Shown: positions 2,144 through 54,150 of the stretch, one piece after another | Position numbering within the stretch: the stretch's first letter is position 1 | Layout of the letters: each line of letters opens with the position of its first letter | Assembly (NCBI GenBank): GCA_044892505.1 | Contig: CM097882.1 | Span: 224,936,001 to 225,000,000 of the forward strand | Length of the DNA: 64,000 nt | Direction: 5' to 3' | Source: Schmidtea nova | Taxonomy: Eukaryota | Translations under genes and position numbers: made by a program | Notes under the pieces: generated by a model | Told to the model about the DNA's origin: nothing | The model's database searches: none | What the model saw: the letters and a program-made list of their open reading frames with translations, nothing else

Positions 2144-4843
2144 CAGTTATGAGCTGCCAAACATTTTACAACCGGTTCTATAAAACCAAAAACTAAAAAT
2201 CGTTTTATTTTAATAAAATATCATTTAATTTGAATAGATTTTTTTTAAATTTTTTTTTTTAAATTATTATAATAATTTCCAAATGATTTCATTATTTTCA
2301 TTAATATTTTTTTGGCGCATTTCGAATCCTGGTATCATCAGCTGAATTATGATTCCTCAACCAAGTTTTGACATATTCTCCAGCATTCCATTGTCAAGTG
2401 GTGGTCCAATCATATTAATACTCATTAAACTAGAAATATGTTCTACTGAAAGATTAGCTCTTCTTTTTTCACAAATAATATTCATTAATGAGAATCCTCG
2501 TTCGGCCTCTGATGAACTTATAGCAATGGTGTTAATTTTATTTTTAGCTTTTTGAATTGTTTCTATTTCAGAGATTTTTCCTTCAATTACATTTTGAACA
2601 TAATCTCTGAAATCATTAATGGGAATTTCGTATCTAATTATTTCATTTCAATTTTTCTTCTCCCAAAATCCAAGGACAAGTAATTTCTTCCAAATTCCAA
2701 TCAGCTTCAAGTAAATTAAATAATTCGGCAATGTCGTTATTTTTTTCATTTTTTGTCATTCTTATATGTCTACAATTTAACATTCGGGAATTCATTTTAT
2801 CAATTATTGTTTCAATAAGTTTTTTTCTTGGGAGACTTTCAAATTTTTTATTTTCCACAAAAGGAATATCTGCAAATGCAGGTGACGACAACATTTCTTC
2901 AATTTTTTTTTCAAATGTTCCTAAATTTTCTTTCAAATTTATCATAATATTTATAGTTCTTTTTATCAGTTTCGTTGCCTTTTGAAGGGTAACAAACCTA
3001 GCTTGTAATCCTATTGACAAATAGGACATCTCTTGAAGAATATCGATCATAAGCGCTAAATCCTTTATAAAATATTTATTCGCAAGTCGGTTTGCCATAC
3101 CAAGATATTTGGAATCATCCTTAAAAAATTTGTAAAGTGGTACATAAGCCCGCCAAACAGCCATAGCAGATCTTAAGCTGCATGCTGCCCATCATGGGTC
3201 TAAGACTCGACCTATTTTAATTATTTCCACTTCCAAATCTCGTGATATATTTTGTAAGCGCAATTGATTTTTATTTGATTGAAGAAAAATTACATAAATT
3301 TTATCGATAAATGATTTAAAATGATTCACTTGCTTTATTTCGTCTATTGCGTCATCCAAAACCAGCTGAAGACGATGGTTTAAGCAATGCCAAACTATTA
3401 CATAAGGAAATTCTTTTATTAATCTTGTAGCAACATCTGACTTTTGACCAAGCATTGTACTTGCACCATCAGAACAAAAACCAATCAGATTTTCTTTCAA
3501 AAAATCTGTGGAAAAGCCACTTGAGTTTAGTGTTTGCATTAGAATATTAAAAATATGCTCAGCGGTTTGAGATTCTAAATGAACTAAGTCCAAAAAAAAT
3601 ATTGGATTTTCTTTTTCCATTTCAAACTTCAAAAAAATGACTAGCACCGATTTGCTTGATATAGTTGAGGCTTCATCTATGATTACGCAAATTTTTGAAT
3701 TGGATGCAATTATTTTTTCAACAATTATTTCTTTCATTTGTTTTGCTATGTGTTCTGCTATTCTAATTGCACTAAACCTAGAATGAAGCGAAATTCCAAG
3801 ATCTACCCCATTTTTAACCTGAAGTTCAACTTCTGCTTCCATATCTGAAAGCGGTCTTTCTTTTTATTAAGCTGTAAACAATATTGAATATTTTATTAGT
3901 ACTAGCCATATTTTTGGCATTATTTGAATCGATGATTCTGGGTAGTTCATTTTTTTCTTTTTGTTCAAGCATTTTAAAAACCATTAAATGTGTTTTTGAT
4001 TTAAAATGTTCAGACATTTTTTTTCTTAATGAAGCCTGTTGAATAACTTTTGTTGTTCCCGATGGTTGAATTTCAAAATTTTGCCATTGTTGTGGAATGT
4101 GAATGTTTTGTTCTTTACAAATACCCAAAATATCGAACGAGGAGCATTTTAGACATCCAAGCTTTTTTTTTTTACCTCCAGGCCATCATATTTAGCTTGA
4201 AATAGCTTTAATTGGTCACCATTCCAGCAATCTGGAAAATTATTCTCTTTTTCGATATTGGCTGGTAAAATTTTAGAGCAAGATACTGTTGCTGATTCCT
4301 GGCTTACGCTTAGAGTTACAGTATTTGAAATATTTTCCTCTTCTTCTTCATAGTTTTTTTATTATTATTAAAATAATCACGAATATTAGCTTTGCGTTTC
4401 ATTAAATTTTATTTCCTAAAAGAATGGGCTTATTTAGGAAATAAAGTAGAAAATATAAATATACTCACAATATATTAATAATTGTTTATAAATAAGATAA
4501 ATGGATTCTTGTTTTTCTGTTAAAATTTTTTTTTATTTTTTGTAAAAATAGTTATTTAAGCAGCACAAAATTATCACTTCTAAACTTTAATAAAAACAAG
4601 AAAATAATGTTTGCTAATACACACATAATAACTTTTTAGTGAAAGAAATCTCAACGCCAACTTTGCAATGAAAATATTTAAATTTTAAATTTATTTGTTG
4701 TTTTTAAATATAGTGTCACCTATTAATTAGGTATCAACAAAATTAATTTGTTGATTCCTAATTAACAAACGGTTTTATAAACTACAAAAAATTTAACAAC
4801 CGGTTCTATAGAACCGGTGCGGACCAGCTACAGCTCATCACTG
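2144..4843 (-). mobile_element. Full-length hAT DNA transposon, 2700 bp
   Basis: 13-bp TIRs CAGT(T/G)ATGAGCTG; perfect 8-bp TSD AATTGGGG at 2136-2143 and 4844-4851; subterminal ACCGGTTCTATA motifs. Confidence 0.95.
2360..4200 (-). pseudogene. hAT transposase (ZNF862/KIAA1586-like) with one in-frame stop and two frameshifts
   Basis: IIDEAST, CSDGASTMLG, WHCLNHRLQL motifs; C-terminal hAT dimerisation motif SSSEAERGFSLMNII; TGA at 3192-3194 in frame with 2643-3164; frameshifts near 3835 and 2645. Confidence 0.92.
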
Positions 4844-5924
4844 AATTGGGGTGCTGGTTTTGTTTGTGGGTGTATGTATGAGAGTATGTAAGTAAACTGA
4901 TTTTATATATAGAATAAAATATTTAACAGTAACTATTAAACACAATTTTTATTATTACGATAACGAAATTTTAAAAAATGTAAATTAATCTAACTCTGAA
5001 ATTCGGTCGAAACTTTCTGGGAAGATAGGATAGTAAATTTTTAGGCTTGTATGGCTTTTTAAACTTTCTTGGATTTTTCTTATCTTCAATTTCTTTCGAC
5101 TTTGTTTTTTTAATTTTAATCTTTAAGTTTGTTTTTCTTTAACTGTTCTTGTTGGCTTGAATTCTGCTACTATATTTGTTTCTTGTTTTCCGTAGTTAAA
5201 TTAGTTTTATTTCCAATTGATTTTTTTTAATTTGTGATTTGACTTACTATAGTAATTTACTATAGCAAGCCAAATTCAAATTTATAATTTGAATTTTGAT
5301 AATTATTATGAAATAAACCAATACACAAAAAAATAAAATTAACAACAAGGGGGGAACCACTACAGGGGAAAATAAACCACACAAATCGTGAACATTACAA
5401 CTGTCATCACATAATTGTTATCAAAATTGAGTCAAATAAAATATTATCAATAAAATCAAAAGAAATTCAGTTCAATTATTTGATATTGGATTGGATTGAT
5501 GATCATTGTCATCTTGGTCTATGTATACATTCACTTTGTATTTATTTATCCCTATACTATAATATTTTAGTTTTATTATTTTTACTATCCTTCCATCCTC
5601 TAACAAAACCTTTGATAAAATAAAAATTTTAAATAAATCAATCAATATCAGAAATACGAGGAAAATGAGTCATGCATAAACAACGAGGTGAATGGGACAC
5701 CGTATGAATTAGATATTTTGTATCGGCGAATTATTTACGCCTAAGAACGAATAAATTATTTAGATTTCACAAATTTTCAATAAACAAATCAATCAAAACA
5801 AACAAAACTTTGAACGACGAAACTTTGGTCAGCCTACAACATCCACGCATAATTTTATAACTGTATAGGAGCCGTCACTAAGCTAATTCACTGTAATTAT
5901 AGATTAACTTGAATAATATAATTA

Positions 5925-6335: not shown

Positions 6336-6530
6336 CGATTATTGCGATATAAATAATTCATTTGTGAGAAATTGATGGAGCAGACGAGGCACAGACAGAA
6401 CCCGAATAAATGAGCGCCGAATCAGAATTGAATTAATTTATTTTTTGTAGTCTCAATAAATAATTTTCTTTTGATGTATTGTTTTCATTATAGCATAATG
6501 CTTATCTTGTAAATCAATAGGACTTTGTTT

Positions 6531-8169: not shown

Positions 8170-8625
8170 ATGAGTACATCAAACGAAGAATTGAGAGCTT
8201 TCTTAAAAGAGACAGCCAAATCAAAAATGAAAGTGGAAAAAAGAGTGGCAAATTTAATACAACGTTTCCGAAAGACTGAAAGTACCTGATTCGATCCCAG
8301 AAAGATAACAAATGCTCAGAAGCAAATCGAAGCTTTAAAGACCTACGTGCAGTAAATGTAAAATTACGATGACAGTAATATCAACCCGATACTAACCCGA
8401 TCAAGCAACCGTACAAAATGTACTGACCAAGACAATAAGACCATTGTCTTACCCGAAACAAGAATTGTTCCCTGATAGGATGGACGTATAAACGATTAGG
8501 ATCGTAAACGAAAACACTGTTCGAAAGTTCAGGCCAGGAAAAGCCGAAAGAACAAGAAAGACGTTACGAATACAATATTTTCGAGATTTTCGAGGTTTAT
8601 TTTCTACAGTAAAGATATACAATAA
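8170..8625 (+). pseudogene. Decayed ORF2-family copy
   Basis: MSTSNEELRAFLKE...KTEST*FDPRKI (TGA at 8287 where relatives have W of WF.PE); basic tail RKRKHCSKVQARKSRKNKK; several further stops. Confidence 0.5.
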
Positions 8626-13645: not shown

Positions 13646-14134
13646 CTATAGGGATTGTAGGAATACTAAAAGCAAATCAGATTTTATTAATAGAAATTGA
13701 TCGCTAATTGATAAGTCGGTTTTTCGCAACCGGAAATCTTGACCGATGATAACAAGAGTTGAAATGAGCAAGCTCCATGACAGTCCGTATTGATTGATTT
13801 CTGGTGGTGGCGAATAATCCTTTAATCGAGATTGATTGTGATCCAATGTATTGATTTGTAGATTTTTTGAGTTAGTCATTTCAGATTTGTCTGGAAAGTA
13901 TATTAATATTGATCCAGTTGTTGACAAGCATCTTCCAGTTTGTACAGCTTCTTTACGCATTCCAGTAGGAAAACATTTCTGCAATCTACTGAACTGGCAA
14001 TTGTTCCTTCTTTGAATATCGACTACACAATCTCCACTAGAGTAGAACTGATAATTGTTGTCATTTGATGAAAATGAGTCACTGTGAATGTCTTGGGTGA
14101 ATGGGTATATCGAATCATTGTTAACAGCTTGCAT
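13646..14134 (-). pseudogene. Nuclear receptor remnant (NR2/COUP-TF-like), first zinc finger missing
   Basis: GDCVVDIQRRNNCQFSRLQKCF.TGMRKEAVQTGR (second finger and T-box, two Cys lost); LBD signature DLSISDQFLLIK; no introns over this span. Confidence 0.75.
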
Positions 14135-15802
14135 TTTGTTTTTTTTTGATCAGCATGAAAGTGAAAATATGTAAATATTAAAACAACATCTATAATTTTA
14201 CTCCATTTAATAATTAATTTATTTATAAAATTGAAAATTTAATCTAAGGCACTACAGGGATCATAGTTTTTTGATTAACAGATCAAATATGATGTGGATT
14301 TTGATCGACCTACATTGATTTCGGCTGTTCTATATTTTAACTGATAATGGAAGCACGCTTGACTGATTTATAATTTTACTAATGTTTATTTAAATATTTT
14401 ATTGATTTTTTTAGATTTTAGATAATTTGCAATCCTCTTATAGCTTCAGCTCTCCAATGGAATTTTTATTCATTTCTTGCCCTTGTCGAATTGGAGGGAA
14501 AAAATCTTTTTATGTTTTATGCTCTATAATATATGTGAGTTTTTATATGTTTGTCTTATTATTTTTTCATTATACATAAATTAAGAAAAGAATAATTATC
14601 GGATCCTCTATTTTTGAGGAACCTTTTATTTAAAGCGTAGTGATTTATATGAATTTGATTTTGACCTTTTACTTTCGGGCCTTTTACCGAAATAGAATCT
14701 TATTTTTACGCTAAAATATCAATTAATTCTTGATATTTCATAATAGACAACAATTGAAAATGTTTTCATAGTTATTACTGATATGCATATCAATATCGTA
14801 TGGTATATCTTTACACGATATTCCAATCTTTATTCGTTTTATGAAAATGAAATCGAAATTTAACTGATAATTATTTTAATGCATGAAGCTTTTCTATAAA
14901 TTATTGCTTCAACACAGATTCTGTTTGCTGTCACTCTTGAAGTACTTTCTTCGTTCACACTTTTACATTCCTATAATATCTTTGTCAACCTTGTCAAAAT
15001 AATTTCACACATATTTTGTAGCTGTGTATGTTCCTCATATTTTAATATTTACTTTGAACAACAACAAAAATAATTCTTTTAAGGAAGCAAACTTTTTATT
15101 ATGTGGACATTATGTATGATCCTGCGACCGTCCCTTTACATCTACGTAAGTATGAGGCTGGACTTCGATGTCTCGTCGACACCATGGGATTGGACAGTTT
15201 GACAGAATTCACTCTATATCTGAACCCATACTGACGTTTCTGCATTGCAACAAGCTGGAGATACTCACAACTAGTAAGCAACTCGGAAGGTCAAGAAAAT
15301 AAACAACAACAAAAAATTCATTTATACACATACAGTGATTTTGCTCCTTGACTGAGAATACATCGATCTTTGAATAAGATTTATTGAATATTGAAAAAAT
15401 GAATCAATAAAAAATATGAATAGCTGGGGCATGAGCCGGTACTGATGTTGGGCCAGACAAATCATCGATAGTCTAAAAGAAAAATAAAATCAATATAAAT
15501 GAATAATATAAAAACAATAACAATAAATAACCAAGTATCAGCAATTCAGCAATATGCAGCAGAATCTGAAATTAACGAACCATGAATTAAAAAAAAGTAA
15601 TAACAATAAAAACTCACCCATGCGGAATAACAATAACTTGAAACTCTGACAAGGCGTGGGCAGATATCACCGAGAATCTACAATAAAATAAATTATAACA
15701 AAAAGATTCACGGATGAATAAACAAAAACCTACCGAATTAGGTACACATAGAAAAACATTAAAAATGAAATGCACACAATATCTGCATGCACACTAAATT
15801 CT

Positions 15803-15984
15803 GATTGGCTTGCCGGCAACACAATTTAGTATAAATACGGCAGCCAAATTCAGTACAAGAGTCAACTTTTACCAAGAGGTCATTCTCACTAAAGAGACAT
15901 TTTTACCAAGTGTCATTCTTCAAGGGATTAGCAATTGTCAGAAAACCATTGTAAATCGAGCTATTGTGGAAATAAAAGGTACGT
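15803..15984 (+). promoter_or_regulatory. CCAAT box, TATA box and first splice donor of unit A
   Basis: GATTGG 15803, TATAAATA 15830, AATAAAAG|GTACGT donor at 15979; same order in unit B (26157, 26183, 26291). Confidence 0.65.
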
Positions 15985-16739
15985 TGGTTTGAATCTTATT
16001 ATTATTGATAAACCCTCATGATAAAAATCAAATAAGTTGTCCCGAAGGTCATCTGATCTGACGGGATCTCGGGCCTCTCAGCGCAACACTTTCTTATGTG
16101 AGGGCTGATGCGGCGAGAGAGATAAGCGACTAAACGGGGGAAGGGTGCACGTAGACATCGATAAATCCTGCGGTAACCGAATGTCATGAGGATATGCCAG
16201 AGATCGTAAGTATATAGTACCCTACATGCAGATGATTCTATCCCCGATTTTACACAGAAATGATGCGGAGTACGAGCTGCATGCACAGTGGATAGGTAAA
16301 CCCATATCGATGCCAAAGTAAAATTAGTCGTATTTCGAGCGGATGAACACTAAGGGGGGAGAGATGATAACCCATAATAAAGCGACGTTAAACAATTTTA
16401 CACATCGAAATCAGACTAAGCACATAGTTTAAACAAATCAACCTACTAAATCGATAGATGATAGTCTGAATTATGACCAAAATTGTGTAGTAAAAGTGTA
16501 GGTCGACTACATAAAAATTATTAGAACAGTAACTGGTAGCTGATCAGACATTAGAAATAATAAATTTAACTCAGTGTCAACAACCGACGATCTTAAGTAA
16601 GTTTCGATTTAATTACGTATGCATAGATATATGCTGAGTATGAGCATGAGGGATGATGAGGTGAACGTGATTGTGGATGGGATGGGATGATGGATTACCG
16701 TGGTTGAATCATGTCTTATCTACGTTGTAACTCCAGATC

Positions 16740-17303
16740 ATGCCGAAAAGAACCCAGATCAGTTACCACTGTCAGTCGAAAGTGAGGAGCATCATAGGTG
16801 CCCCAATGAAGGGAGATATTCCAGTGGCAATCAGAAATGTGGCCGAGAGACATATGCGAGCCTAGAGACGCCGGCATGTCAACATGAGAGCGTCCACCGG
16901 TGAGACCATCTATCATTATCGAATCCGATTGGAAAGCGACTCCTTCTGGCCGGATATGAGAGACAACCATGCCACGACCTCACTAATGTGGTTCATTCAG
17001 TTCGAGGACGACCGAGGGAAAGTTCGCTGGATACTAACCTTCGTCCAGATTCCTATCAATCTCTTCCAACAGCTGGGATACATCTTTCTCAGTCCACCGA
17101 GGTGCAATACAATGGGAGAATCGCGACCCTACATCGACTCTCCAGGACACCGTGACATGCACCAAGAAGTATGGAGTCCGGAAGTAACACTACGGGAAGT
17201 GTTCATATACCATGACGAACTATGTTGGATTCCATGTCCCGTTTTCTATTATCCCGACGGAACCGGCAGAGAAGATAGAACTTGCGACCAAGATTGGATA
17301 TGA
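16740..17303 (+). pseudogene. Novel ORF1, copy A (187 codons, one TAG at 16863)
   Basis: ATG 4 nt after acceptor CTCCAG; MPKRTQ...ERHMRA*RRRH...WFIQFED..RWILTF..LGYIFL.PPRC..G E.RPY..SPG..DM..W.PE..L.E.FIY...LCWIPCP; aligns end to end with 27083-27652. Confidence 0.8.
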
Positions 17304-17527
17304 GTATGACGATTGAGTGAAGTCTCGTGTAGATGAAAATAAATTAGTTAATTTTGTACCTCTTTCTGTTGAATGCATGAAAGGTGTTGAACTGAGGTCT
17401 GGGTTTGATAGATTAAAAGTGTGATTGTGATCGATGGGGGCTGGAAGTGGGAAACGAAAATAAGTTAGACGATTTTGCTACCCTGAATCTTAGAACGAAT
17501 CGAATAACCCACTCAAATCTCTTTTAG

Positions 17528-18085
17528 GTGAATCCGGCTACTAACAATTCCAGTGGGTAAGAAGTACGCTCGTTACGACAACGTATCAGGGCCTTGGAGA
17601 GCCTCGTGAAGCGGCAGGATGCAGAAATAAGTGGACTACAAACGACCTGGTTCAGTCCCGAACCGGTCAAAGAAATCCAAAAACGCCGATACCGAGCAGA
17701 GCGGGCTCTAGAGGACCAGACCCGTGAAGTCGCAGCCACCAAACTGGACCTCAGTAATTACTTAAGAGCCTCCGCGAAAGACTTCGTGACGCAACAATTG
17801 AGACCATTGATTCTAACAAGCACGTTCAATCGTTGGATCGAATCGGCTAGCGTATCGAACGGAACACAAACCAATACGGGCTCTGACTTTATAAGAGAAC
17901 TTCCAAGACAAGTTCCCCAACCGGAGGGATCGAAACGCACCAAGAGAAGGAACCACCTAGGCACTAAGAGGCGTCGAGAAAGACGAGCATACCCGGAAAG
18001 GATTGGGATCGAAGTGGATCTCTTGAGCGGGTTGACAGAAAGGCAATTGTTGGACCTAATCAATCCTGATGTATTACTGGATTAA
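17528..18085 (+). pseudogene. Novel ORF2, copy A
   Basis: Follows acceptor CTTTTAG; coiled-coil-like N-half, TTWFSPE, TQT, Arg-rich KRRNHLGTKRRRERR, Leu-rich tail; TAA at 17558; AATAAA overlaps the stop. Confidence 0.8.
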
Positions 18086-18350
18086 ATAAATGTATTATAG
18101 TTAAAGTGTAGTCTTATGAATGAATGTGGAATGAATGAGAATTTAAGTAAACGATTGATTGAGTATATACAATTCATTAAAAAGCCAAAGGAAGTAAGGA
18201 AAGTAAATCAACCCTAGAAAGAAGAACTATTAGGTAAATAAATGGGGACCGGAATAAAACAACACAAACCTTCTATCGGTAGTGGTGGACCCGTGAATAA
18301 ATAAGGGAATAGTAGCCGCAAGGTTGCTTACCTGCCTTATCATTTCAAAA

Positions 18351-18441
18351 CGTTGATACAGTTTCAACATGATGAGTAGTTAGGGATACATTATGAGTAT
18401 CAGCGGGGGAAGCGTTTTATGTTGGTGAGATTACCCTAACT
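18351..18441 (+). ncRNA. Conserved structured cis-element near LTR end, copy A
   Basis: Outer stem CGTTGATAC/GTATCAGCG, 8-nt 5' bulge AGTTTCAA, inner stem CATGAT/ATTATG, loop AGTTAGGG complementary to CCCTAACT downstream. Confidence 0.6.
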
Positions 18442-19134
18442 AATGACATCAAGCATAATCTTTGTTGTAAAATCTAACCAACAAACCAGCACCGAATAGA
18501 ATAACAGGACGAGCAAAACATCAAACTAACATACTTTGCTCGTTACAAAGTATGATACTTTGTATGAACAGAATGATGCTATCTCTTCAAAGATTTGACC
18601 AGAAATGCGCCTCCGAATATTTTTTTCTCAATTGATAAGAGGTGTTGATCTTTTGTTAACAGTATCTTTAAAATTATCAGAAAGAACCTTGATTATTGGT
18701 GAAAATTTTTACAATACACAAGACTGTTAAAAATAATGAAAATGGCATCACTATACATACATTTTCACAGCATTTAATTAAATGGATGCAGTAAAACAAA
18801 AGCTTCTAAAATGCTTTTTCTGTTGAATTATTTGAATAAATTACTTGAATTTTAATTTATTTAAGAAATATTTTATTTTTACTAAAATATATTTATATTT
18901 ATATATAACATTTAATTATTTAATTTAATAAATTTAATTTTTATCAAAATGTTCTTTTTCATAAATTTTAGCTACTTGAATTTTTTTTACGATTTACTTT
19001 TACATTTTTCATATTTGAGCTATCAAAATTAAAATAATTAATTATAAGATTCTTTTTATTTTTATATTTACCTAATTATCTAATGAATTTTTTAATAAAT
19101 CCTTATGTGTTTCTAATTACTTTTGTTTATTTGG

Positions 19135-25800: not shown

Positions 25801-27082
25801 GCATAAAATTTTAATCAATACAAAAAATTAAATTGAATAATAATAAAATAGCTAACAAGACATTGACAATTCATCAGTACACAGCGAAGCCTGAAATGAA
25901 TGAGCAAATGAATTAAAATGAACAATAACAATAAAAACTTACTCTTGCAGAACGCAAAGAAAAAATAGGACAATGAGTAAGCTACTTAAAACTGACAGTG
26001 AGTGGGCGGACCACTCGGACAATACACAATCTAGAATACAATGATTAAATAAAATAATGTAATGCATCAATAAACAATGAACTCACTGAGTTAACAGCAG
26101 AATGACAGACATTAAAAATGAAATAGCCGACAAAACAACATACAAACTAAATCCTGATTGGCTGACACAAACTGAAAACTGCTATATAAGCAGTAGCCAA
26201 ACTCAGAAAGTTAATGTCATTTTTCACCAAGTGTGTCACACTACTAGTATCGGAAAATCTCTGTAATAGTAATTGAATTGGAAATAAAAGGTATGAAGTA
26301 TTTCATTGTGTCTTATTTGTAAACCCTCATGATCATAAAATGCATAAGGTATCCCGAAGGTCGTCAGATCTGACGGGATTCTGGGCCTCTCAGTTCAGCG
26401 CATTTTCATGTGTTGACTGATGCGGTGAGCGGATTAAATTAACTATCGGGGGAAGGGTGCATATGGAGGCCTGTATTGAATAACATTGGTGCTGGGGAAA
26501 CAGTCGGTGAAAGGAAACATAGATACCGTAACATCACTAAATAAACAACCAAACATTAGTGAGATAATCGAACCAGGGCGATGAGACACGAAAACCTGGT
26601 AAAGGCCAACTAAGTGTCACAGCAAATGAGATCTGTACACCCATGAGAATACAGCATGAAATTTTATGAATCCGACTCCCAGAGTGATGTAGTTACGAGA
26701 AGTAGACAATCGAGAGTAAACAAATAACATCCAAATAAAACGAATGTGATCAGACATACGATCAACATAGTGGTAGCTGACACTAATCAATGAGCGAGAC
26801 TACGTGTAGATCAGTCTAGTACAATATACATACGATCTTTTGGCTATGGTAGATCTAAACATCGTAGGTTACGTAGGCCATTTATATCGTAAATAGTGAC
26901 AAATAAATTAAATAATCAGTTACAAAAACCGAGCAATCACCATTTCATCAAAGGTAAATTTAAAACTAAAGTGTTGATGGATTGATGAAGGTATGAATGA
27001 GCTTGAGTAATACAGGAAATGACTGATCAGTGTGATGATGATTTAACCAACTTTGCATTCTTATCTCTCTATCTCTCAGAAT

Positions 27083-27652
27083 ATGTCCCCGAAAATATCA
27101 CGACGCTACCGTCGTCTGACGAGGAAACCAACGATCATAACCAGCGGTTCAAATTCTGAAGTTCCGATGCGAATCAAAGCGATATCAGAAAGATACATGA
27201 GAGTATGGAGACGGGGCCATCAGGACCTCACTAGTATGACAAAGATCGCTCAATATAATCTTACGATAAGATGGGAGGGCGACCCATCATGGCCGCTATC
27301 AGAATCAAACCAGGTGCGGAATAACCCCAAATGGTTCGTACAATTTGAAGACAACAATGCAACGCCCAGATGGCTCTTAACATTCATGACCATCTCAGGG
27401 AGAGAGCTACAACAGATGGGATACATTCTCTTGGAACGCCCCAGGTGTATCCTTACAGGAGAGCTACGACCGTATTCTAACTCACCGGGGAATATGGATA
27501 TGGACCAGGACAAATGGATGCCAGAAACCAAATTATGGGAGATATTCATATACAACAATCGACTATGCTAAATCCCGTGCCCTGAGTATTTCGAGTCTGG
27601 TAAAACACGAAAACCGAACAGAGAATGTGACCAGGAATGGGTCGAATTTTGA
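27083..27652 (+). pseudogene. Novel ORF1, copy B (TAA at 27569 replaces Trp)
   Basis: ATG after a pyrimidine tract ...CTCTCAG; reading continues IPCPEYFESG...CDQEWVEF* and matches copy A. Confidence 0.8.
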
Positions 27653-27892
27653 AAATGAGTATACAAAACTCAATATCTTGTTATCGTGTCGGTAGAAAAA
27701 TAAATAAATGTGTTACTGAGAGTTTTTTGAGTATTGAACGATGAAAAATGTATGGGTGTTTGAATGAATGAGTAAGACATAAAAGTAAAATATCTGTATG
27801 GTCGAAAAGGGGGTAGAAATTTTGTCAGGAATACACGAGGAGGGGTTGCAGATTGTGACTAAAGCATGACCTAATAAGCGCTATAATTTTAG

Positions 27893-28444
27893 ATGGACGA
27901 GAATACAGATGACCACCGTGAAAATCGTCTATTGAGGAAACGCATAAAAGTCTTAGAGAGCTATATGAAGCGACAGGAGTCCGAGATAAACCTACTGAAA
28001 ACAACCTGGTTTCATCCCGAGCGGGTCAAAGAGATCCAACAACATCGATACCGGGCAGAGAGAGCTCTAGAAGACCAGACCAGAGAAACCGCCACGGTCA
28101 AATTAAAGTTAAACAATTACCTTCGAGCATCTACTAGAGAATTCGTAGAACAACAATTGAAGCCCCTGATACGTGTTAGTACGTTCAACCGATGGGTAGC
28201 GTCAGCTTGTACCAACAGTGAAACCCAAACCGAGGGAAGCTTCACTCCTATCGCGACCATTCCAATTGAAATTACTAAGCCTGAAGGGTCAGCACGAGCG
28301 AAGCGGAGGAATCGCTTAGGCGTGAAACGACGGCGAGAAAGAAGGGCATATGCCGAAAGAATTTGAATTGAGATCGATTTGCTAAGCGGTCTGACGGAGA
28401 AACAACTCCTCAATGTTATCAATCCGGATGTTTTGTTGAATTAA
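27893..28444 (+). pseudogene. Novel ORF2, copy B (TGA at 28364)
   Basis: ATG directly after TTTTAG; TTWFHPE, YRAERALEDQTRE, ETQT, KRRNRLGVKRRRERR, IDLLSGLTEKQLLNVINPDVLL. Confidence 0.8.
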
Positions 28445-28720
28445 ATAAATGTTTTGGTGTTAAAAGTGTTGTCATATGATTGAATGTAGAAAGTATGGAA
28501 AATTCGGTGAATGATGGAATAAATAGGTATATACAATTCATTTTGAAAAGGTATCGAGGAAAAATGTTAAGTAAACGAAACCCTAGGCGTAATAAAAATT
28601 TGTGATGATAAATTGGGACCGGAATAAAACCACACAGACCTTCTATCGGTAGTGGTGGACCCGTGGATAAATGAGGGAATAGTAGCCACAAGGTTGCTCA
28701 CCTGCCTTATCATTCTACAA

Positions 28721-28811
28721 CGTTGATACAGTACCAACATGATGAGTAATTAGGGACAGATCATGGGTATCAACGGGGAAAGAGTGTTTATGTTGCCGAG
28801 ATTACCCTAAT
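28721..28811 (+). ncRNA. Conserved structured cis-element, copy B
   Basis: CGTTGATAC/GTATCAACG, bulge AGTACCAA, CATGAT/ATCATG, loop ATTAGGG with CCCTAAT downstream. Confidence 0.6.
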
Positions 28812-30779
28812 ATTAACATCAAATAAAATCTCAGTTCAAAGACCATACCAACAAACCAGCAAATTCTTAATACACTACCCTATCAGAGCAAGATTAACAC
28901 AAGTGTACCTGTGTGAGCTTGTCTTTTTGGACTTTGGGAAGGTCGTTTTGTGAGCGATGAAATGGCGGTGAGCGACTTATCTGATCAACTGAGAAACCCT
29001 GTGTTGAATGGTTCCTACCGAGTTGAATTCAAGTGCAACACTACGAAACCATCGGGAAGGTCTAAACTCATTGATAGTTAAAAAAATGTTCCATGAAAAG
29101 TGTCGCTGCGCTATCTTTTTAGATTTTTTCTTGAAACGAAACAATCGGTCCGCCCTAAATTTCATCCTACATAAAGTTTCTCAGGGATTGGAATAGTTAA
29201 AAAATTGTGTTAGAACAAGTGATTTAACTCTGATACCTGAGAAAACCTTAAATTCAAAGCAGGCAATGACAAAATTAATTTTCTATCACTCTTAACACTA
29301 ACAGAATATAAATCTATACATTATATCATTTAATTGACAACACGAATCATCTGAGTCTCCTTAGCACTAAATAGAAGATGCATCCTGAAAGTCAGAGAAT
29401 ATCCAGGATATCACCATTGATTGAGTGAACTGTTAACATTATCCAATATTTTTCAAAAGAAGTCAAATAAATAATATTTTGTCACAAGTGACAATTTAAT
29501 TGCGATGACAGTGACTTATGAGCAGTACTCTCTAACAATGTTCTGTCATACTACCGCCATAGCTGACCAAAAACATTAGCAAAATTAGTAGTTGTGAATG
29601 ACGAAAGCCGCCTATAACGACCTTAAGATGTGTCACTGATCACATGAATGGGTCGAAGAGACGGTAAACAGGAACATAGGAATTACGGTGACTCACTTTT
29701 GTGGAAGCAGCATCACAACCGTCGGGAAGAAACTTTTTACAACTTATGTCTTACGTCGATACTGATATATTCCCAGGCGAGTCACCAACTAGTGAACTGA
29801 CAAAGAGCAAGTTACCAAGCAAACATTAAAGAAAAGTCAGAAAAGTGTAATAACGAAGGAGGCAGCTTAAAAATAATGCGCGTGTAATTAGACAATTGAA
29901 GCTCTAAAATAGTATCTAGTTTTAGTAATTCTATAAATATATTATTCCTCGTGCGTAAGAGTTGTAGTTTTTGTGTGCACTTAAGAAAATGTAGAACAAA
30001 AACTCCTAATGAATGAATTCTTTGACCGGGTACGTAGAGAAAAACTAAATTCAATTATAGCAAAGGAGATTTGGATTTTAGAATATTAATTTTTCATATT
30101 TTGTAAAGCATATTATATGTTGATTTTGATAAATTGAAATTAAAGTAAGATTAAAAGTTAGTTTAGTCATGTGACTTTTTATAAGATTCGATATTAGCAA
30201 TTTTGTTGAGAGAAATAGATTCAGTATGAACAGCAGTTGATAAATCGAATTGATAAACCAAATTCGGATGAATAATTTATATTTTTGATAGAATTCAAAT
30301 AACCATTTACAAAATCTTCTTATTTAAAAAAACCCAATGACAATTAACAAAACTGGATTATTAAAACAATCCAATAAAAAAGTAAAAATAAATGATATTT
30401 TTTTATATAAAGTAAATTTCTTAAACACAATTTTAATTAATTATTTTCTTTTAAATAATCAAAATTCTTTTTTTTCGTTTTATTTTGATATGATAGCAAC
30501 ACCCAAATCATGTTTTTGAGAAATATGAGAAAATTAGGGAAAGGAAACCGAGCAGACATTTATAGATATATTGCGGACAATATTACTGAATTCTCAATAT
30601 TTGTATATTAAATGCGTATTGAGAATAGATGAGCACATAGTTTTCAGTTGATAAATGATGTTGGACGACTATTAACATATTGGTTCATCGTCTTTGCATC
30701 CTGATCTCCTATCAGACACTCCGACATCCCCGCCAGACAAAATTAAACTCCAACCACGGTAAAAATGTCAAGGTAAAGG

Positions 30780-30995
30780 AACATAGAAAGATAAGAGTAC
30801 CAAAATCTTCTATCGGTGGTACCTGAGCTAAAATAAATTATTTGGGCATTAACAGTCGCGGAGATGCAGCTCCAACGTTGCTTAGCAACAGGTGCAAAGA
30901 GAAGGGAGTTTAATTTTATGTTTCTTCTAAGTGGTCGAGTGAGTTGCTAAAGGATTATATAGATCATTTAATAAACCACCTAAAAGGCTCCAACA
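30780..30995 (+). mobile_element. 3' end of another LTR (E)
   Basis: TTCTATCGG motif, stem-bulge-stem at 30865-30896, TTTATGTT, ends GGCTCCAACA; similar to 53550-53684. Confidence 0.6.
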
Positions 30996-39876: not shown

Positions 39877-40661
39877 ATTATAAGCGTATTCTTAATCAAA
39901 AATCAATTTCAGAAAAGGAATACCATTTTTAAATGGTATTTTGTCCTCTTTTCGAATCACCCATGAAATGGTCAAGAATTATAGTGGCTTTTATGTATAT
40001 AAACAGGTTCTAGAGAGATCTCAATCTTTCTATATTATAAGCGTATTCTTAATCAAAAATCAATTTCAGAAAAGAAATACCATTTTTAAATGGTATTTTG
40101 TCCTCTTTTCGAATCACCCATGAAATGGTCAAGAATTATAGTGGCTTTTATGTATATAAACAGGTTCTAGAGAGATCTCAATCTTTCTATATTATAAGCG
40201 TATTCTTAATCAAAAATCAATTTCAGAAAAGAAATACCATTTTTAAATGGTATTTTGTCCTCTTTTCGAATCACCCATGAAATGGTCACGAATTATAGTG
40301 ACTTTTATGTATATAAACAGGTTCTACAGAGATCTCAATCTTTCTATATTATAAGCGTATTCTTAATCAAAAATCAATTTCAGAAAAGAAATACCATTTT
40401 TAAATGGTATTTTGTCCTCTTTTCGAATCACCCATGAAATGGTCAAGAATTATAGTGGCTTTTATGTATATAAACAGGTTCTAGAGAGATCTCAATCTTT
40501 CTATATTATAAGCGTATTCTTAATCAAAAATCAATTTCAGAAAAGAAATACCATTTTTAAATGGTATTTTGTCCTCTTTTCGAATCACCCATGAAATGGT
40601 CACGAATTATAGTGGCTTTTATGTATATAAACAGGTTCTACAGAGATCTCAATCTTTCTAT
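39877..40661. repeat. Tandem array, 5 x 157 bp
   Basis: Near-identical units; each contains the hairpin AATACCATTT-TT-AAATGGTATT; the four 60-aa ORFs are a by-product. Confidence 0.97.
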
Positions 40662-43542: not shown

Positions 43543-43980
43543 ATATATTTTAAAAAATGGTGTTCTTTTATTAATTAATATCATTATTATTATTATTATT
43601 ATTATTTTATTGGTTTTCCGAGTTGGCATTTTATAAATGTTTCATAAGAACCGAAAATTCTACATTTGAATAATGCTGTTTCGAAATTGATACACCGAAA
43701 CAAATAAAATAAATTTGAAAAATAATGCAGTAAAGGATCAGTTATGAAATTATATATTCACTAATTATAATTTTAAATTCTCTTTTTTTAAACTATTTAC
43801 ATGTGACCCCTTTCGATATCGTGTTTATGATGTCTCATTTTTTTTAATTCAGTTTGATTATTTGTTTGTTCCGATTTTGTCATCAGAAATCAAATTGTAA
43901 ATTAAGATGTTTTCTTGTAAAATATTTTAATTTTAATAATAAACAATAATTTCGAAATTTTTAGTAAATAAAAAACTTAC

Positions 43981-44362
43981 AGAGAGTTTTATTCACACAG
44001 CGTGGCTCGCCTCCAACGCCTTGAATTAAACCGACAATTCCAGGAATAAAACCACTTAGACCTTCTCCAACATAGAGAGCTGTTATAAAATGTCTTGGAT
44101 AATTGATAAGATATGGTAGAAATGTCACAGATGACGTAGTATCTACAACTGACAACGACCAAATAAGAATAAAAAATGGAATGCTCGATTGACGCCATTT
44201 TCCAAGTGTAAAAATTTTTAAAGTGTGACTCCAAAATATTGATAGAAGAGCGCAACAAACACAGCCAATTGAAAATATTAAATATATCGTAAATCGTTCC
44301 ATATTTCGAAATTTTTTAATACAATGAACTCCCATATATATTAATGGGGCGATATTTCCCAT
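43981..44362 (-). CDS. SLC52A: Riboflavin transporter exon 3
   Basis: MGNIAPL...VDTTSSVTFLPYL...ALYVGEGLSGFIPGIVGLIQGVGG..C; TTCAG acceptor, GTAAGT donor. Confidence 0.95.
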
Positions 44363-44713
44363 CTGAATTCAAAAAATTGAAATTAATGGTAAATAAAAAC
44401 ATAAAAAATAGTTTTAATCATATTACGAAATTCATATTTCAAAATTTTATTGTATTCAATTAGTTGACTTAACTAAAATGCTGATATTCATTATAGGGAG
44501 GGAGGCTAAAACTTTGAACTATTTTAATTTTTCATTCCAATTTTTGATAACATTTTACAATTATTTAATATTATAAAAAATACAAAAAGTTTTCAAATAA
44601 TTACTAAATCGCAAAATAAACATTTTCTTTAAATTTTAATTATGTGATAAAAATTTGCAGCGAAAACTTTTCTTGATTTTTAATAATTATTTAACATTTA
44701 ATTTGCTCTAAAA

Positions 44714-46025: not shown

Positions 46026-46306
46026 AATCATCAAATTGACCATATTTCGATATAAAAATATTAAATAAATTTAACTTAAAAAATTATAATAATTAAGATA
46101 TCAATTTCTTATTTGACGTTTAAATACTTTCTCAAAAATCAAGGTTAAATATACTTCAGACAAACATGTGTATATGATTGTATATTAGTTGTCAAACATT
46201 ATTTTAAATAAGAAAATTCATTGCATATGAATATAACGGAACACTATATAACTGCTGAAAATAAAGTTCTAAAATGTGCTAGTAATAATTATTATATAGT
46301 ATATTA

Positions 46307-47715
46307 CAGGGTTTGTCACCATATTTTGACATTATGCATATCAATTTTGACAAAATATTAAATAATTATAAAATATCAATTTACCAAAATATTTGTCACT
46401 ACATTTTGACAATATGTCTTTCAATGTTGACTTTTATTACATCAATTTTGACAAATATATACTATTGTAAATCAATCATCATTTAATACTGTTTGAATTA
46501 CAAAATTTAGCGACCCATGACAACCAACAATCTAACAAATGCTGATAGAAGGCGTGTTATCGAAGCCTATAATCAAGGCAATACCATCGCAAACATAGCT
46601 AGTATTTTCGGAGTGAACCGAACAACCATTCACGAGATTGTACGAGTTTTCTTGAATGAGGGAAGAATTGACAGAAAGCAGAAAGGCGGTATTAGGCGCC
46701 AGTCACTTAATGATACCATTAAAAATCAGATTAAAGCATGGGTTGACGAGAATTGTGGACTGACTTTAAAAAGATTGGTTGAAATGGTTTCCGAGACATT
46801 TGGAATTACCGTCTGTCAAAAGACGATAGACAGATGTTTGCAGTCATTTTGTTATTCCTTCAAGCGTGTGACATTGCAGCCCGCACGTAGGAACGATGAA
46901 GAGTCCCTAAACGCGAGGGCGGAATACGCTAATTTATTTTTGGGTTTAATGGCTACAGTCGAAGAATCAAAGTTATTCTTTATTGATGAGGTAGGATTCA
47001 GCTTGTCGATGAGAACAAGGCGTGGCTGATCCCCAAAAGGTACCCGGGCTGTCCATGTTGTTCCGGGTCTTCGTACGAGGAATTTTTCAACGTGCTGCTG
47101 CATGTCAAAGAATGGGATTTTTAACTTTTCAACGCAAGATCTTGCGTTCAATACGGATTATTTTTATACTTTTATCGAAAATACAATTGCAAAACTAGGA
47201 GAAAGGAATCTTGAAAACGTTGTTTTGATAATGGACAACGTCCCATTTCATAAAGCCGGTAGCATCAGAAGATTGATTGAGTCTAGTGGGCACAGAATTG
47301 TATTCCTTCCGCCATATTCACCCTTTTTGAATCCAATAGAGAACATGTTCTCTCAGTGGAAGGAATATATTAGGCAAAGAAGATGTAATACGGAAAAGGT
47401 GTTAAATGAAGAGATTTTAAATGGGTCGCGAATAATTAGCATTGTTGATTGCACAAGTTATTTTATGCATATGGTTGGGTTTCTCCCCAGGTGCATAAAT
47501 AAGATTCCTATTATTGATGAATAAATTTTAAGCGTACTTTATACACTTTATGATATGTATTTTTAATTTGTCAAAATTGATGTAATAAAAGTCAACATTG
47601 AAAGACATATTGTCAAAATGTAGTGACAAATATTTTGGTAAATTGATATTTTATAATTATTTAATATTTTGTCAAAATTGATATGCATAATGTCAAAATA
47701 TGGTGACAAACCCTG
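46307..47715 (+). mobile_element. Tc1/mariner transposon, 1409 bp
   Basis: ~150-bp TIRs starting CAGGGTTTGTCACC with internal TTTTGACA direct repeats; TA on both sides. Confidence 0.97.
46517..47524 (+). pseudogene. DD34E transposase with a single premature TGA (47027-47029)
   Basis: HTH N-terminus, FIDEVGF, MDNVPFH, PYSPFLNPIE (34 residues between D and E); both track ORFs are in the same frame. Confidence 0.95.
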
Positions 47716-48159
47716 TATATACAGTACAATATATGATCGACACTGAAAAGAAAAATATATATATAAGTATATTAATATTTTGGTATTCCATGTTTAAACC
47801 ATGTGTATAAATTTTGACTTTATGCTGGCCATATTGAGAACAGAGTAAATTTCACTGCACTGAACATACTGTTACATGTATTTATATAAACTATTCATAT
47901 TTACAGTATTTATATTTTAATTATTGGAATGTAGTGGTATGTTGAAATTGAATGATTAAATTGTTTGAAATATTATTTGGGTTTAAAATAATTCTTCATG
48001 CATAAATTAAGAAAAAATACTTTGTTTATATAATACATTTATCACGACTTTAAGTTTTTTAATGAATAACACAATATACTTTTTCAATGATGTGGAGCTA
48101 TATGTGCAGTTACATGAACTGTAATTTTATAAGCAAAAAGATTTATGAAATCTTAACAT

Positions 48160-50769: not shown

Positions 50770-52549
50770 CAATGATGACTTAAAGATCAAGAACTCGCGA
50801 GATTGAAACACATTAGTAATCTGAAACTGAATGACTTATTAATATCCAATTAGAAACGATAATATAAATCAAAAACGTGATATCGACAATTTGTGTTATT
50901 ATATCCTGAGATGTTAATGGAAATGTATCATTGCGAAATAATTGTGGTTGATATATTATTCACGAATCATTCAACAAGTCATACAATCATTATTCATAAG
51001 AAATTAATTCACGTACCTAAAGGGACCTTCGTACTGTATAAAAGGACGCTACTTGAACAATAACATTATAATTTACGCAGACTAAGACTTGCCAAATCAA
51101 ACTCAACCACAAGATAATAGAATCCAACCCCGAGATTAACTTACTTTATTCAGCCCAGTTTCTACGGAGTATTTACATGAATCATTTAAGTTTTCTTAGT
51201 TTTCTATTATTTAATAGGAGTTGCCCAAATTGGTGCGAGTTCTGATGGAAGTTATCGGAGAACTGCTTCTTACTTCACACGTTTGAAAAATGTTCAACCG
51301 AATGAGGTTTTCAGATCATTAAGAAATGCGGCAGCACTTGACTGATTTCGACAGAGAAATATGTTCCAAATATGAAACCCTGCATAACAATTGTTAAACG
51401 GGAACTGAAGGAAGATTTGCTAGAAACACTGAAGAGCATTCTATCTATTACATCTTCAAAATCAAACCAAGAATGATGACAGACAAAACCTCATGAGTTC
51501 TACTTACAAATATGAATAATAAGATAACTCAACGTCAACGTCAACTTGGAAATGAGAGTGTCAACGTATCCGAAGATACAAACCCTGAACAATATTTCGT
51601 GAATCATCAGCGATACTTTATCAGTTAAAAGTCGAAAAAAGTCAGGAGTCTTGTGGACAGATGCCAAAAACAAGAGACCAAATTTTAAGTCGGTAAAAGG
51701 AGTATGAAAAACTATGGTACGTGTGACTTACCTGAGTGTGACAATATATTCGATGCGAATTTCAGAACTTTCATTTTCCAGCGTAATAGTGAAACCAAGA
51801 GATTTATGTTTTGGATATTTTTTTTATTTAGTTGAAATTTTAATTTCTTGTTATTATTTATTTGAGGTTTCTTTTGTGTTATAAAATCATATAATGCACA
51901 TGAGAACTAGTAATAAATCTCTGAATTTTGTGAAGGTTTTGTTTTGAATAGAAACATATTCAGGTGTTGTTTGAAGGATAAATGTATACTAATTGGGAGG
52001 ATGAAATTAATGTAGATGATTAGTAAATTCAAATAGTAGAAATAGATTCCATAATCGACGAATTACGTGTTGAGTTAGGTAAGGCCCAACAAAAGAAGAA
52101 AAACTCATACATTGACTCAAAACATTTGAAAACGCGTGGTTCAATCCGGAGTAGATGAAGCACTCACGTTGACAAGGGACATCGCGGAAATTAAGTTGCT
52201 AAACATTCAGCTACGGGAAGCGAAACACAAGAGAAATCAACAAACTACCACTACCAATGTCACTCAACATTCAGCTCTTAACATATCAGAAAATCTTATT
52301 GTTCCCTATCCAACTTTATCAACATAAACCAACGCCAAATGCTTTTACTTTTTTATAGAAGAAGCAAACCAGGGAGATCAGAAAAGAAAAGGAGACAATT
52401 ATGAAAATATCATGTATTATCGAGCCGTTGAAAATCTAAGCAAAGTAGAGAACATTGGCTTTTCGTAAATAAGTTGTCTTCTGAAGTTTTTTATTTTTTA
52501 TTTTTTGAGGAATTACAAGCACATGTGGAGATATTGCTAAGTAGAAAAT

Positions 52550-54150
52550 TGTTAAGGATACCTAAATAGTAAATAATATAATAAATAAATATAATAACTT
52601 GGGGAAAATCAATATAGTGATTGTGATAGCATTCTGGAACTTAGAGAAGAAACGGAAAAGCAAAAAATTGAGAAATAAGGAAGGAGTAACAAAATAAAAG
52701 AAATTAAACAAAAAAATCAGAGAAAGGTCAATTAAAATTAATAAGTGCAAAAAAGCAAAAAGGAATTCCAAAATGAAAAACAAAAAACGAAAACAAAATC
52801 GGCATCACGACAGCTGTCAGTGGTGTTGAGGATACCTAAATAGTAAATAATAATAATAATAATATAAATAATTAGAATAACTTAGGGGAAAACCGATAGG
52901 GTGATTGAGATAGCATTCTGGAATTTGGAGAAGAAAAATGAAAAGAAAAATTGAGAAATGAGGAAGGAATAACAAAACAAAAGAAATTCAACAATACAGC
53001 GGAGAAAGATCACTTATCAAAAGCAAGAAAACAAAAAGGAATTCCAAAATTGGAGAGCAAAAACGAAAAATGAAATCAAAATCTGCATTTCCACAACTGT
53101 CAGAGGTAACTTGAGAACTAGGAAAAAGTATGGGAAATGACAGAAGCAGAAATGAAAAAAACAAACTATGCGGAGTGTCGAACTGTCAGGGGTAACACGG
53201 AGTTGAAAAAAGAAAATGCCAGAGACAGTAGTGGGAAAGGCAAATAGTCATGATTGAATTATTCCTGTTTGATTATCTCAAGCTTCTCTTCATTAGAGAT
53301 TTTTTCTTTTTGCTTTGACAATTTCTTTGACTTTGTATTTGGCTTGGCAACGTTTTTTTGTTTATTTCTAATTATTATTCTATTATTGATTTTATTTTTT
53401 AAATTTCTATTTCTATTTTGTTATTATTATTTCTGCAAGTTTGCGAACTAATAATAAAAAAAACTGATAAAAATAATAGTAAAAAATAACACACACGCAT
53501 GATGATAGGCATAACAATGATTCAACCATAACACAGACATACCCCGTCATTTGGTACTGTTCCAATAGTGCTTAGCAATGGTTTTCAATAAGAGTGGAAT
53601 AATTTTATGTCACTTGTAAGTAGTCAGGTGAATTTATAAATAACTATATAGATAAATTATTAAACCACCCAAAAGGGACACACAAATGAGAAAATAAAAA
53701 TAGTGTATATCAAAGATTTTCAATGTGAGTCAGCGAGGAGAAATCAAAAGGTTTCTCGATAGAGATAATAATTTTTATCCAATTTATCCACAAAAAACAA
53801 CATGAACTAACCTTTAAAAAGCACCAACTCGTCTCAAAGACCTATAAAAATTTTAGCATAATATTATTTTATTATAATTTGTTCTACATTTTAATTTTAA
53901 TTATTATTGCGTTGAGGATACCTAAATAATAAAATTAAATATAATAATGAAATTGATTGGAAAAAATTGATAAAGTAAACGATGTGATGTTCTGAAATTC
54001 ATAGAATAAGGAATTGGTGCAAAAAATTAAGAAATGAGAAGATAATACAAAAAATTGTGGATATCAAACAATAAAATAAAAGCTCATTATTAATTATTAA
54101 GTACAAGAAGGAAAAAGGAATTCCAAAATCGAAAAGAAAATCAAGAAATT
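52550..54150 (+). mobile_element. LTR G cluster: three repeated LTR starts
   Basis: (T/C)GTT(A/G)AGGATACCTAAATA at 52550, 52825 and about 53910; E-like 3' end at 53550-53684. Confidence 0.65.

Follow-up and report, generated by a model that had tools for sequence, protein, structure and literature searches.

Two genes inside the long terminal repeat of a Burro-like Ty3/gypsy element of Schmidtea nova, and a possible regulatory role for one of them

The solo LTR and its parent element

At 15446..18491 (+) of the window, meaning the whole AT-rich stretch of 64,000 nt of Schmidtea nova DNA that was analysed, lies a solo long terminal repeat (LTR) of 3,046 bp with TG...CA ends, as defined by alignments. 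This LTR, copy A, is bracketed by a 4-bp target-site duplication (5' half 15442..15445, 3' half 18492-18495) with one mismatch, and carries two reading frames in the same orientation, LTR ORF1 (16740..17303, +) and LTR ORF2 (17528..18085, +). Copy A itself is ordinary and dead, a non-functional solo-LTR relic: ORF1 has an in-frame stop at 16863-16865, and ORF2 has lost its start codon, with none after the splice acceptor, and has an in-frame stop at 17558-17560, its open part being 17561-18085 (174 aa). The nearest relatives fetched are truncated or solo too, at 86% DNA identity, and the two flanks checked for the older subfamilies showed no intact interior. A second LTR of the same family, copy B, occupies 25805..28861 (+) with a 5' terminus that is not recognisable, and its ORF2, at 27893, meets a stop at 28364-28366, ahead of the C-terminal tail.

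Up to four linked copies of ORF2 had originally been counted in the window. Copies A and B do belong together in a single family (287 and 278 bits against its profile), and the sequence at 8170..8352 (+) is a decayed homologue from a remote, third old family, with E 4.1e-8 to locus L156 and E 7e-19 on a family-3 profile built from 20 other loci; that profile in turn aligns to families 1 and 2 over 55 columns (HHalign 96%, E 1.6e-9). The fourth copy did not hold up as such. The DNA at 52039 matches only itself in a search of the genome (single-copy), and what is left there is a weak candidate for a family-3-like remnant at 52107..52175 (+), with an iE of 0.005 on the family-3 profile, against 2.6 for the best reversed-window control, and 0.48 on the profile of families 1 and 2. 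The family is also far larger than four, since an ORF2 DNA search of the genome (1.25 Gb in three large contigs) gave 8,920 first-look candidates, with 150 scored, and at least 151 matches at E<=0.001.

Twenty fetched copies have about 3.1 kb in common, beginning with TGTTGG and ending with CCAGCA, and share nothing beyond it. Both ends were present in 14 of the 22 stretches examined, and the 4-bp target duplications of these were perfect in 11 and had one mismatch in three, including copy A. A stand-alone 3-kb element without LTRs was considered, as there was no TGG within 0-4 nt of the 3' end and no tract of eight purines before the 5' end, but this was overturned by a primer site 6 nt away and by a purine tract that proved to be short and set back; at L073 (~6500-6527) and L190 (~5370-5397) the tract preceding the 3' LTR is ~10 nt off the LTR and near-identical in both families. 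The primer site, 18 nt long and 6 nt 3' of the LTR, corresponds to the 3' end of a genomic tRNA-Pro(TGG), and follows at least 33 of the first 100 of 512 listed LTR ends, as counted by eye with a pattern that favours the class. All six LTR pairs fetched had 4-bp duplications and 4-8 mismatches between their LTRs, and these young elements have both LTR ORFs open. The spacing was about 26 kb in five pairs and 16 kb in the sixth; the internal sequence generally measures ~23 kb and the full element ~29-29.5 kb. In solo copies, the long ORFs on the 5' side of ORF2 turned out to be unrelated neighbours (other transposons, host exons).

The interior of one such pair encodes RING, a zinc-knuckle Gag, Monjiviricetes_fusion, PR-RT-RH-IN, ankyrins and TRAF RING/MATH domains. 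The env-like fusion protein sits between gag and pol, and an ORF of L072 shows the pol order in full (RVP 531-621, RVT_1 843-1001, RNase H 1064-1193, integrase 1302-1473). There was no Pfam match at E<=0.01 to BIR or BCL2 in the 11 internal ORFs scanned of one element, a set confined to longer, unbroken frames. Judged by its domain layout, which agrees with that given in the accessible part of PMC6431247, the element is a Burro-like Ty3/gypsy.

A second, sister family has no blastn similarity to the first, yet a homologue of ORF2 (25-34% identity, E ~1e-11 to 1e-12) is encoded in its LTRs, some 500 nt short of the LTR end. It uses the same primer site, has a different ORF at the place of LTR ORF1, and its interior is Burro-like, the copy scanned giving no RT or integrase match. 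The family-2 leader at L092 (2444-2880) contains the primer site and, further downstream, two partial copies of it. A tandem tRNA-Pro array with a 308-bp period begins at G000:C1:459609706, and 1,106 pattern matches occur genome-wide; arrays of tRNA-Lys and tRNA-Arg are also present in the genome.

Several other features lie elsewhere in the window. An open frame at 13646-14149 (-) matches the nuclear-receptor C4 zinc finger (E 1e-7) and is, by this match, a host exon or a piece of a pseudogene. At 46290-47731 there is a Tc1/IS630-type transposon whose DDE_3 transposase is split and whose inverted repeats measure 167 bp (97.6%), and zinc-knuckle, Gag-like frames of another retroelement lie at 59977-62158 (-) in a region of strong strand skew. 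The broken frames at 2643-4185 (-), of which the piece scanned had no significant Pfam match, presumably belong to a transposase of hAT type, going by their look, and we take the hydrophobic open frame at 43961-44368 (-) to resemble a riboflavin-transporter exon. At 39877-40661 a 157-bp unit is repeated five times in tandem, with 98% likeness among the copies.

Genes and predicted expression signals within the LTR

Towards the left end of the LTR lies a predicted promoter (15801..15854, +), with a reverse CCAAT box at 15801, TATA at 15829 and an initiator-like TCAGT at ~15850. These motifs are conserved across 15 aligned 5' ends, ~350-410 nt from the LTR 5' end. A predicted leader splice donor follows at 15971..15983 (+; GT at 15979-15980), present in 14 of the 15 aligned copies at 115-190 nt past the CCAAT box and directly preceded in family 1 by AATAAA. 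The sister family has the same promoter-donor layout, with a GTAAGT donor at the same place but without the AATAAA, and the idea of a short R region ending at this pre-donor AATAAA is weakened by its absence there. LTR ORF1 (also seen at L071:1766-2395) specifies a Trp/Cys-rich alpha/beta protein of ~185-210 aa with a median dN/dS of 0.25 over 39 pairs, and is followed in the window by AATAAA at 17338-17343. It had no family or fold match, the atlas giving 0.92-0.93 at low recognition and the structure model (pLDDT 66) a best Z of 3.6.

ORF2 is preceded directly by a predicted splice acceptor, a pyrimidine tract plus TAG at 17510..17527 (+), and its stop codon overlaps a predicted poly(A) signal, AATAAA at 18085..18090 (+). 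Both features are conserved: in 24 copies, five of the 29 family-1 sequences being left out on account of an upstream in-frame ATG start, a YAG lies no more than 3 nt from the ORF2 start in 23 (background 0.08), and the AATAAA is at the stop in 23, compared to 2/24 in a control window (background 0.04). The earlier proposal that ORF2 is made from spliced RNA is borne out to the extent that the predicted splice signals are conserved. No spliced, retrocopied ORF2 was found among the 67 family-1 places examined, a small sample. Four sequencing runs, in the form of contigs, were probably of tagmented DNA, because one of them shows a loose end that we take to be a Tn5 adapter, and none of the 15 joints seen of the 16 in these runs was GT..AG. 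In the same four probably tagmented-DNA runs, summed depth over the 3' block of the LTR (L071 3282-3549) exceeds that over the ORFs by a factor of tens to a hundred, which could reflect conservation across subfamilies or open chromatin.

Open ORF2 frames of 183-199 aa are found in other copies. In 29 family-1 sequences, made up of copies A and B and 27 others picked because their frames are open, the median dN/dS of ORF2 was 0.18 (0.09-0.45) for the 46 unsaturated pairs of 406, and a pooled value of 0.16 was found for family 2. By this measure, ORF2 is a real gene under purifying selection inside an LTR, and its original designation as a coding gene stands beyond chance. Constraint is uneven along the protein, dN/dS being 0.04 in the basic helix, 0.06 in the tail, 0.08-0.09 in the central helices, 0.19 at the LC8-type site and 0.47 in the linker, as pooled within four groups set by eye and with copy B left out. 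Between the family-1 subgroups of alignment A3, synonymous sites have reached saturation (pS ~0.9), and the proteins are 50-70% identical, with the 3' block ~85%.

The coiled-coil-like half, WFSPE, TQT, KRRNHLGTKRRRERR and acidic Leu-rich tail that had been noticed in ORF2 are all in place. The predicted long helical (coiled-coil) region spans 17561..17840 (+), with a WFxP kink at 17648-17659. A structure model of an intact relative has helices at residues 9-41, 44-91 and 97-115, with pLDDT 83-97 in residues 11-100, followed by a low-confidence linker, a basic helix at 143-159 (pLDDT ~60) and a short tail helix; the pTM of 0.32 indicates no defined fold. ORF2 is predicted to be a coiled-coil oligomer. 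The coiled-coil region is the sole part common to all three families, and the sister family keeps it, together with the basic cluster, at the same LTR position. Searches outside this genome gave no homologue, either with a profile against 1.84 billion representatives, by sequence among proteins of near length only, or in the structure atlas (best 0.79), and fold searches gave only generic coiled-coil matches (best Z 6.6).

Structured RNA and possible roles of ORF2

Two conserved blocks in the LTR are predicted to be structured. The first, at 16010..16149 (+), lies just past the donor, a psi-like position, and is a candidate target of ORF2; its fold has a z of -2.19, with 3/200 shuffles as stable. 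The second is the highly conserved, U5-like 3' block (18245..18491, +), with a core at 18351-18443 that forms a hairpin with possible pseudoknot pairings. The core gave z -1.99 (9/200 shuffles as stable) and the whole block z -0.92. A four-helix model on 32 family-1 sequences has 95.8% of cells paired, against 31-45% when slid, although the model was drawn from these very sequences and may combine helices that are alternatives to one another. Changes on both sides of a pair occur in three cases, of which only one is well populated, and that one may be a single inherited event. Matching helices, with a changed inner-hairpin sequence, were seen in the nine family-2 sequences checked, and an Rfam search of the window gave no match. 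The paired strands of one helix (18361-18443) are TTAGGG and CCCTAA, the letters of the animal telomere repeat, and the block contains internal copies of the LTR terminal hexamers. Elsewhere in the window, a motif at 30805 resembles the start of the 3' block and 30911-30987 is 79% identical to 53600-53676; the regions 30805-30990 and 53490-53680 are possibly remnants of family-3 LTRs.

The preferred reading, a tentative one, is that ORF2 would bind RNA in the nucleus and regulate it in favour of the unspliced read-through form. A single promoter and a leader exon of ~130 nt, spliced either to ORF1 or to ORF2, both of which end in a separate poly(A) site, would yield the short RNAs from which the two proteins are made. 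Because both genes and their poly(A) sites are in the 5' LTR, genomic RNA from this promoter would have to skip the leader donor and two poly(A) sites. The ORF2 coiled-coil oligomer would enter the nucleus by means of its basic helix, bind the element's own intron-containing RNA, and favour the full-length unspliced form over short LTR-confined transcripts, making it an element-encoded candidate for an early-to-late switch. Use of the leader splice or of the ORF2 poly(A) site would leave the short mRNAs without the two conserved structured blocks, a point in favour of this reading. The logic is Rev-like, with a CRM1 export signal outside the model. It should be kept in mind that splicing, start, end and expression are all predicted in this reading. 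The LTR architecture also does not demand a switch encoded by the element, because foamy viruses, as described in the accessible part of PMC3694450, suppress 5'-LTR polyadenylation with U1 snRNP and RNA structure. A more far-reaching version, rather unlikely as a whole, would have Ty3/gypsy elements evolving a Rev/Rex-like switch independently of retroviruses, the LTR being a spliced two-gene unit whose ORF2 binds structured LTR RNA and licenses read-through, intron retention and export of the ~26-kb genomic RNA, with intact solo LTRs acting as regulators in trans.

The Arg/Lys-rich predicted helix (17930..17992, +) is a candidate for a nuclear localization signal (NLS) and for nucleic-acid binding. 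Its Arg-rich motif is near-invariant in family 1, and the helix is the most constrained part of the protein. Pfam REV matched 7/39 members at E<=1, the best at 0.0031 and 18 bits against a cut-off of 22 (profile positions 28-53), and the REV match of copy A (E 0.3) falls elsewhere, not on the basic helix. The same stretch is matched better by bZIP_1 (11/39 members; best 3.5e-4, 21.1 bits, profile 5-42), and also by the unrelated PIG-L family in 7/39, points that count against the preferred RNA-binding reading. ORF2 is, on these scores, not a member of the Rev family, though its working may be partly Rev-like. A bZIP-like, DNA-binding transactivator, dimerizing through the N-terminal coiled coil and acting on the LTR promoter in a role like that of foamy Tas, is an unlikely alternative. 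bZIP_1 is the best Pfam match of the helix, and N-x7-R with small residues, which we take to be the register of the bZIP basic region, is present in 26/29 family-1 sequences. The match is, however, below the cut-off of 27.6, its alignment needs a gap of ~3 residues, and no proper leucine zipper follows in register. Family 2 lacks the Asn and the +8 Arg, having in common with family 1 just the basic cluster and a downstream EVD, and the missing Asn also weighs against the preferred reading. So does the fact that a basic helix would suit an NLS or DNA binding just as well.

An LC8-type site, VSNGTQTN (17852..17875, +), is a further candidate feature. In family 1 the Q is invariant (29/29), TQT is found in 19/29 and D/E at +2 in 26/29; in the model the site coincides with the close of helix 97-115 and a drop in pLDDT to ~45, and the TQT-type anchor is predicted to be in a flexible region. 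Copy A is identical at six of eight positions to the phage-display optimum quoted in the accessible part of PMC6607443, and the LC8 clients described there resemble ORF2 in having a TQT anchor beside a coiled coil, D/E at +2 and a site at a linker edge; ORF2 differs from them in that its site is a candidate only and is confined to family 1, since 0/22 sister-family proteins have the anchor. LC8 is likely, going by the site, to clamp the ORF2 oligomer in family 1 only. It is quite unlikely that ORF2 is instead a modulator of the host, engaging LC8 or silencing factors to blunt piRNA silencing, or taking part in signalling with the TRAF, RING and ankyrin genes. The near-optimal site and its invariant Q are consistent with this, as are the host-like signalling domains of the element, the essential role of LC8 in piRNA-guided transcriptional silencing in Drosophila (PMC7861614, as excerpted) and the repression of Burro by SMEDWI-2 (PMC8532177, as excerpted). 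Against it, family 2 lacks the site while keeping the basic cluster, the genome has many LC8-like loci (61 matches), and a single site would suit a dimer clamp better than titration of LC8. About 20 of these matches in the expanded LC8 family (G000:C2, L160-L167 and others) are full-length and uninterrupted.

The long coiled coil with a basic tail, and the position of the conserved 3' RNA block next to the primer site, would also fit a nucleic-acid chaperone or particle component serving the very long leader and strong-stop DNA. This structural role is improbable. The best match of ORF2 among PDB sequences is indeed the coiled coil of LINE-1 ORF1p, but its E of 0.12 is no better than chance. 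A zinc-knuckle Gag is encoded by the element in any case, and a separate spliced LTR transcript would suit a regulator better.

The original prediction was of an analogue of Rev/Rex, in which the basic helix binds the RNA at 18351-18441, the Leu-rich tail recruits CRM1, and unspliced RNA is exported. In this strict form it is decidedly improbable. What survives is a selected LTR gene with predicted splice signals, a weak match to the REV profile, a structured and conserved RNA core, an LC8-type site near the published optimum, and an arginine-rich motif followed by a Leu-rich tail, an order seen in Rev-like proteins, among which coiled coils are also common (PMC5568270, accessible part). The export signal, the TQT as a general feature and the position of the RNA did not survive. 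The acidic Leu-rich tail (17993..18082, +) is constrained in family 1, and nuclear export signals (NES) are described by class patterns, of which 1c/1d spacing occurs in 28/28 tails and reverse 1c in 27/28. But 1a and 1b never occur, the copy A match to 1c/1d contains a proline, a pattern of this kind is found in only 1/22 sister-family tails, and 88% of shuffled tails match as well, in keeping with the high false-positive rate of NES patterns noted in the accessible part of PMC6488578. The tail is constrained, yet nothing in its sequence marks an export signal, and such a role is unsupported. Conservation of the motifs in a larger alignment was likewise divided, as they are kept within family 1 but the TQT and the tail pattern are lost between families. 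As to the RNA, the targets of Rex, Rec and Rem (beta- and deltaretroviral) are in or near U3 (PMC5568270, accessible part), whereas 18351-18441 is found neither in U3 nor in env: it is downstream of the predicted promoter and 3' of the ORF2 AATAAA, at the U5-like end by the primer site, 50-140 nt before the LTR end, and is unsupported as an element of Rex/Rec type. A part in priming or packaging would be at least as likely for the 3' block as that of a response element. Finally, that ORF2 is no gene at all but an open frame in repeat DNA can be dismissed, for although copies A and B are broken and no homologue was found outside this genome, dN/dS is far below 1 with saturated synonymous sites, there are homologues in three families, and the splice and poly(A) motifs are conserved.

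Relation to known systems and significance

Burro/GYPSM1, as given in the accessible part of PMC6431247, is alike in its ~29 kb, zinc-knuckle Gag, env-like fusion protein before PR-RT-RH-IN, and ankyrin, RING and TRAF/MATH domains, a likeness judged from layout. That part of the description gives internal domains and accessory ORFs but no LTR genes. Nor are LTR genes of Burro mentioned in the accessible parts of PMC6431247, PMC8532177 and PMC11410931, though the figures or supplements of the original Burro report may show such ORFs; PMC13524379 has no match for Burro, planaria or Schmidtea. Burro elements are known, and the LTR genes, as predicted here, may be new.

The Rev-like proteins Rev, Rex, Rem, Rej and Rec, as treated in the accessible part of PMC5568270, share with ORF2 a small size, a spliced mRNA (predicted for ORF2), a coiled coil, an Arg-rich helix followed by a Leu-rich stretch, and structured LTR RNA. 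ORF2 has no significant homology to them, is encoded entirely within each of the two LTRs and followed by a poly(A) signal of its own, and belongs to a Ty3/gypsy element, not a retrovirus; its candidate RNA is U5-like and an export signal is unsupported. The foamy virus LTR (PMC3694450, accessible part) is similar in having a donor and poly(A) signals inside the LTR, so that the 5' and 3' LTRs must be told apart. The foamy accessory genes Tas and Bet use an internal promoter, whereas here two genes, with predicted poly(A) sites of their own, are downstream of the LTR promoter. As a rule, an LTR codes for no protein, or for one at most, from a gene in U3. MMTV sag and HIV nef occupy U3, ahead of the promoter, and are expressed from the 3' LTR; they are alike in placing coding sequence in an LTR, but ORF1 and ORF2 are downstream of the predicted promoter, which would make a solo LTR an expression unit complete in itself.

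In the 3-kb LTR described here, two selected genes follow a predicted promoter, a predicted acceptor and poly(A) signal go with each of them, and the layout is the same in the sister family. Solo LTRs would then be potential protein-coding units, and the question is raised of how full-length RNA passes two poly(A) signals in the 5' LTR. Planarians, in which Burro RNA is easy to detect and RNAi is workable (PMC8532177, as excerpted), make the question of an ORF2 switch directly testable. If ORF2 is such a switch, then regulation in the style of complex retroviruses would have arisen separately in a Ty3/gypsy lineage.
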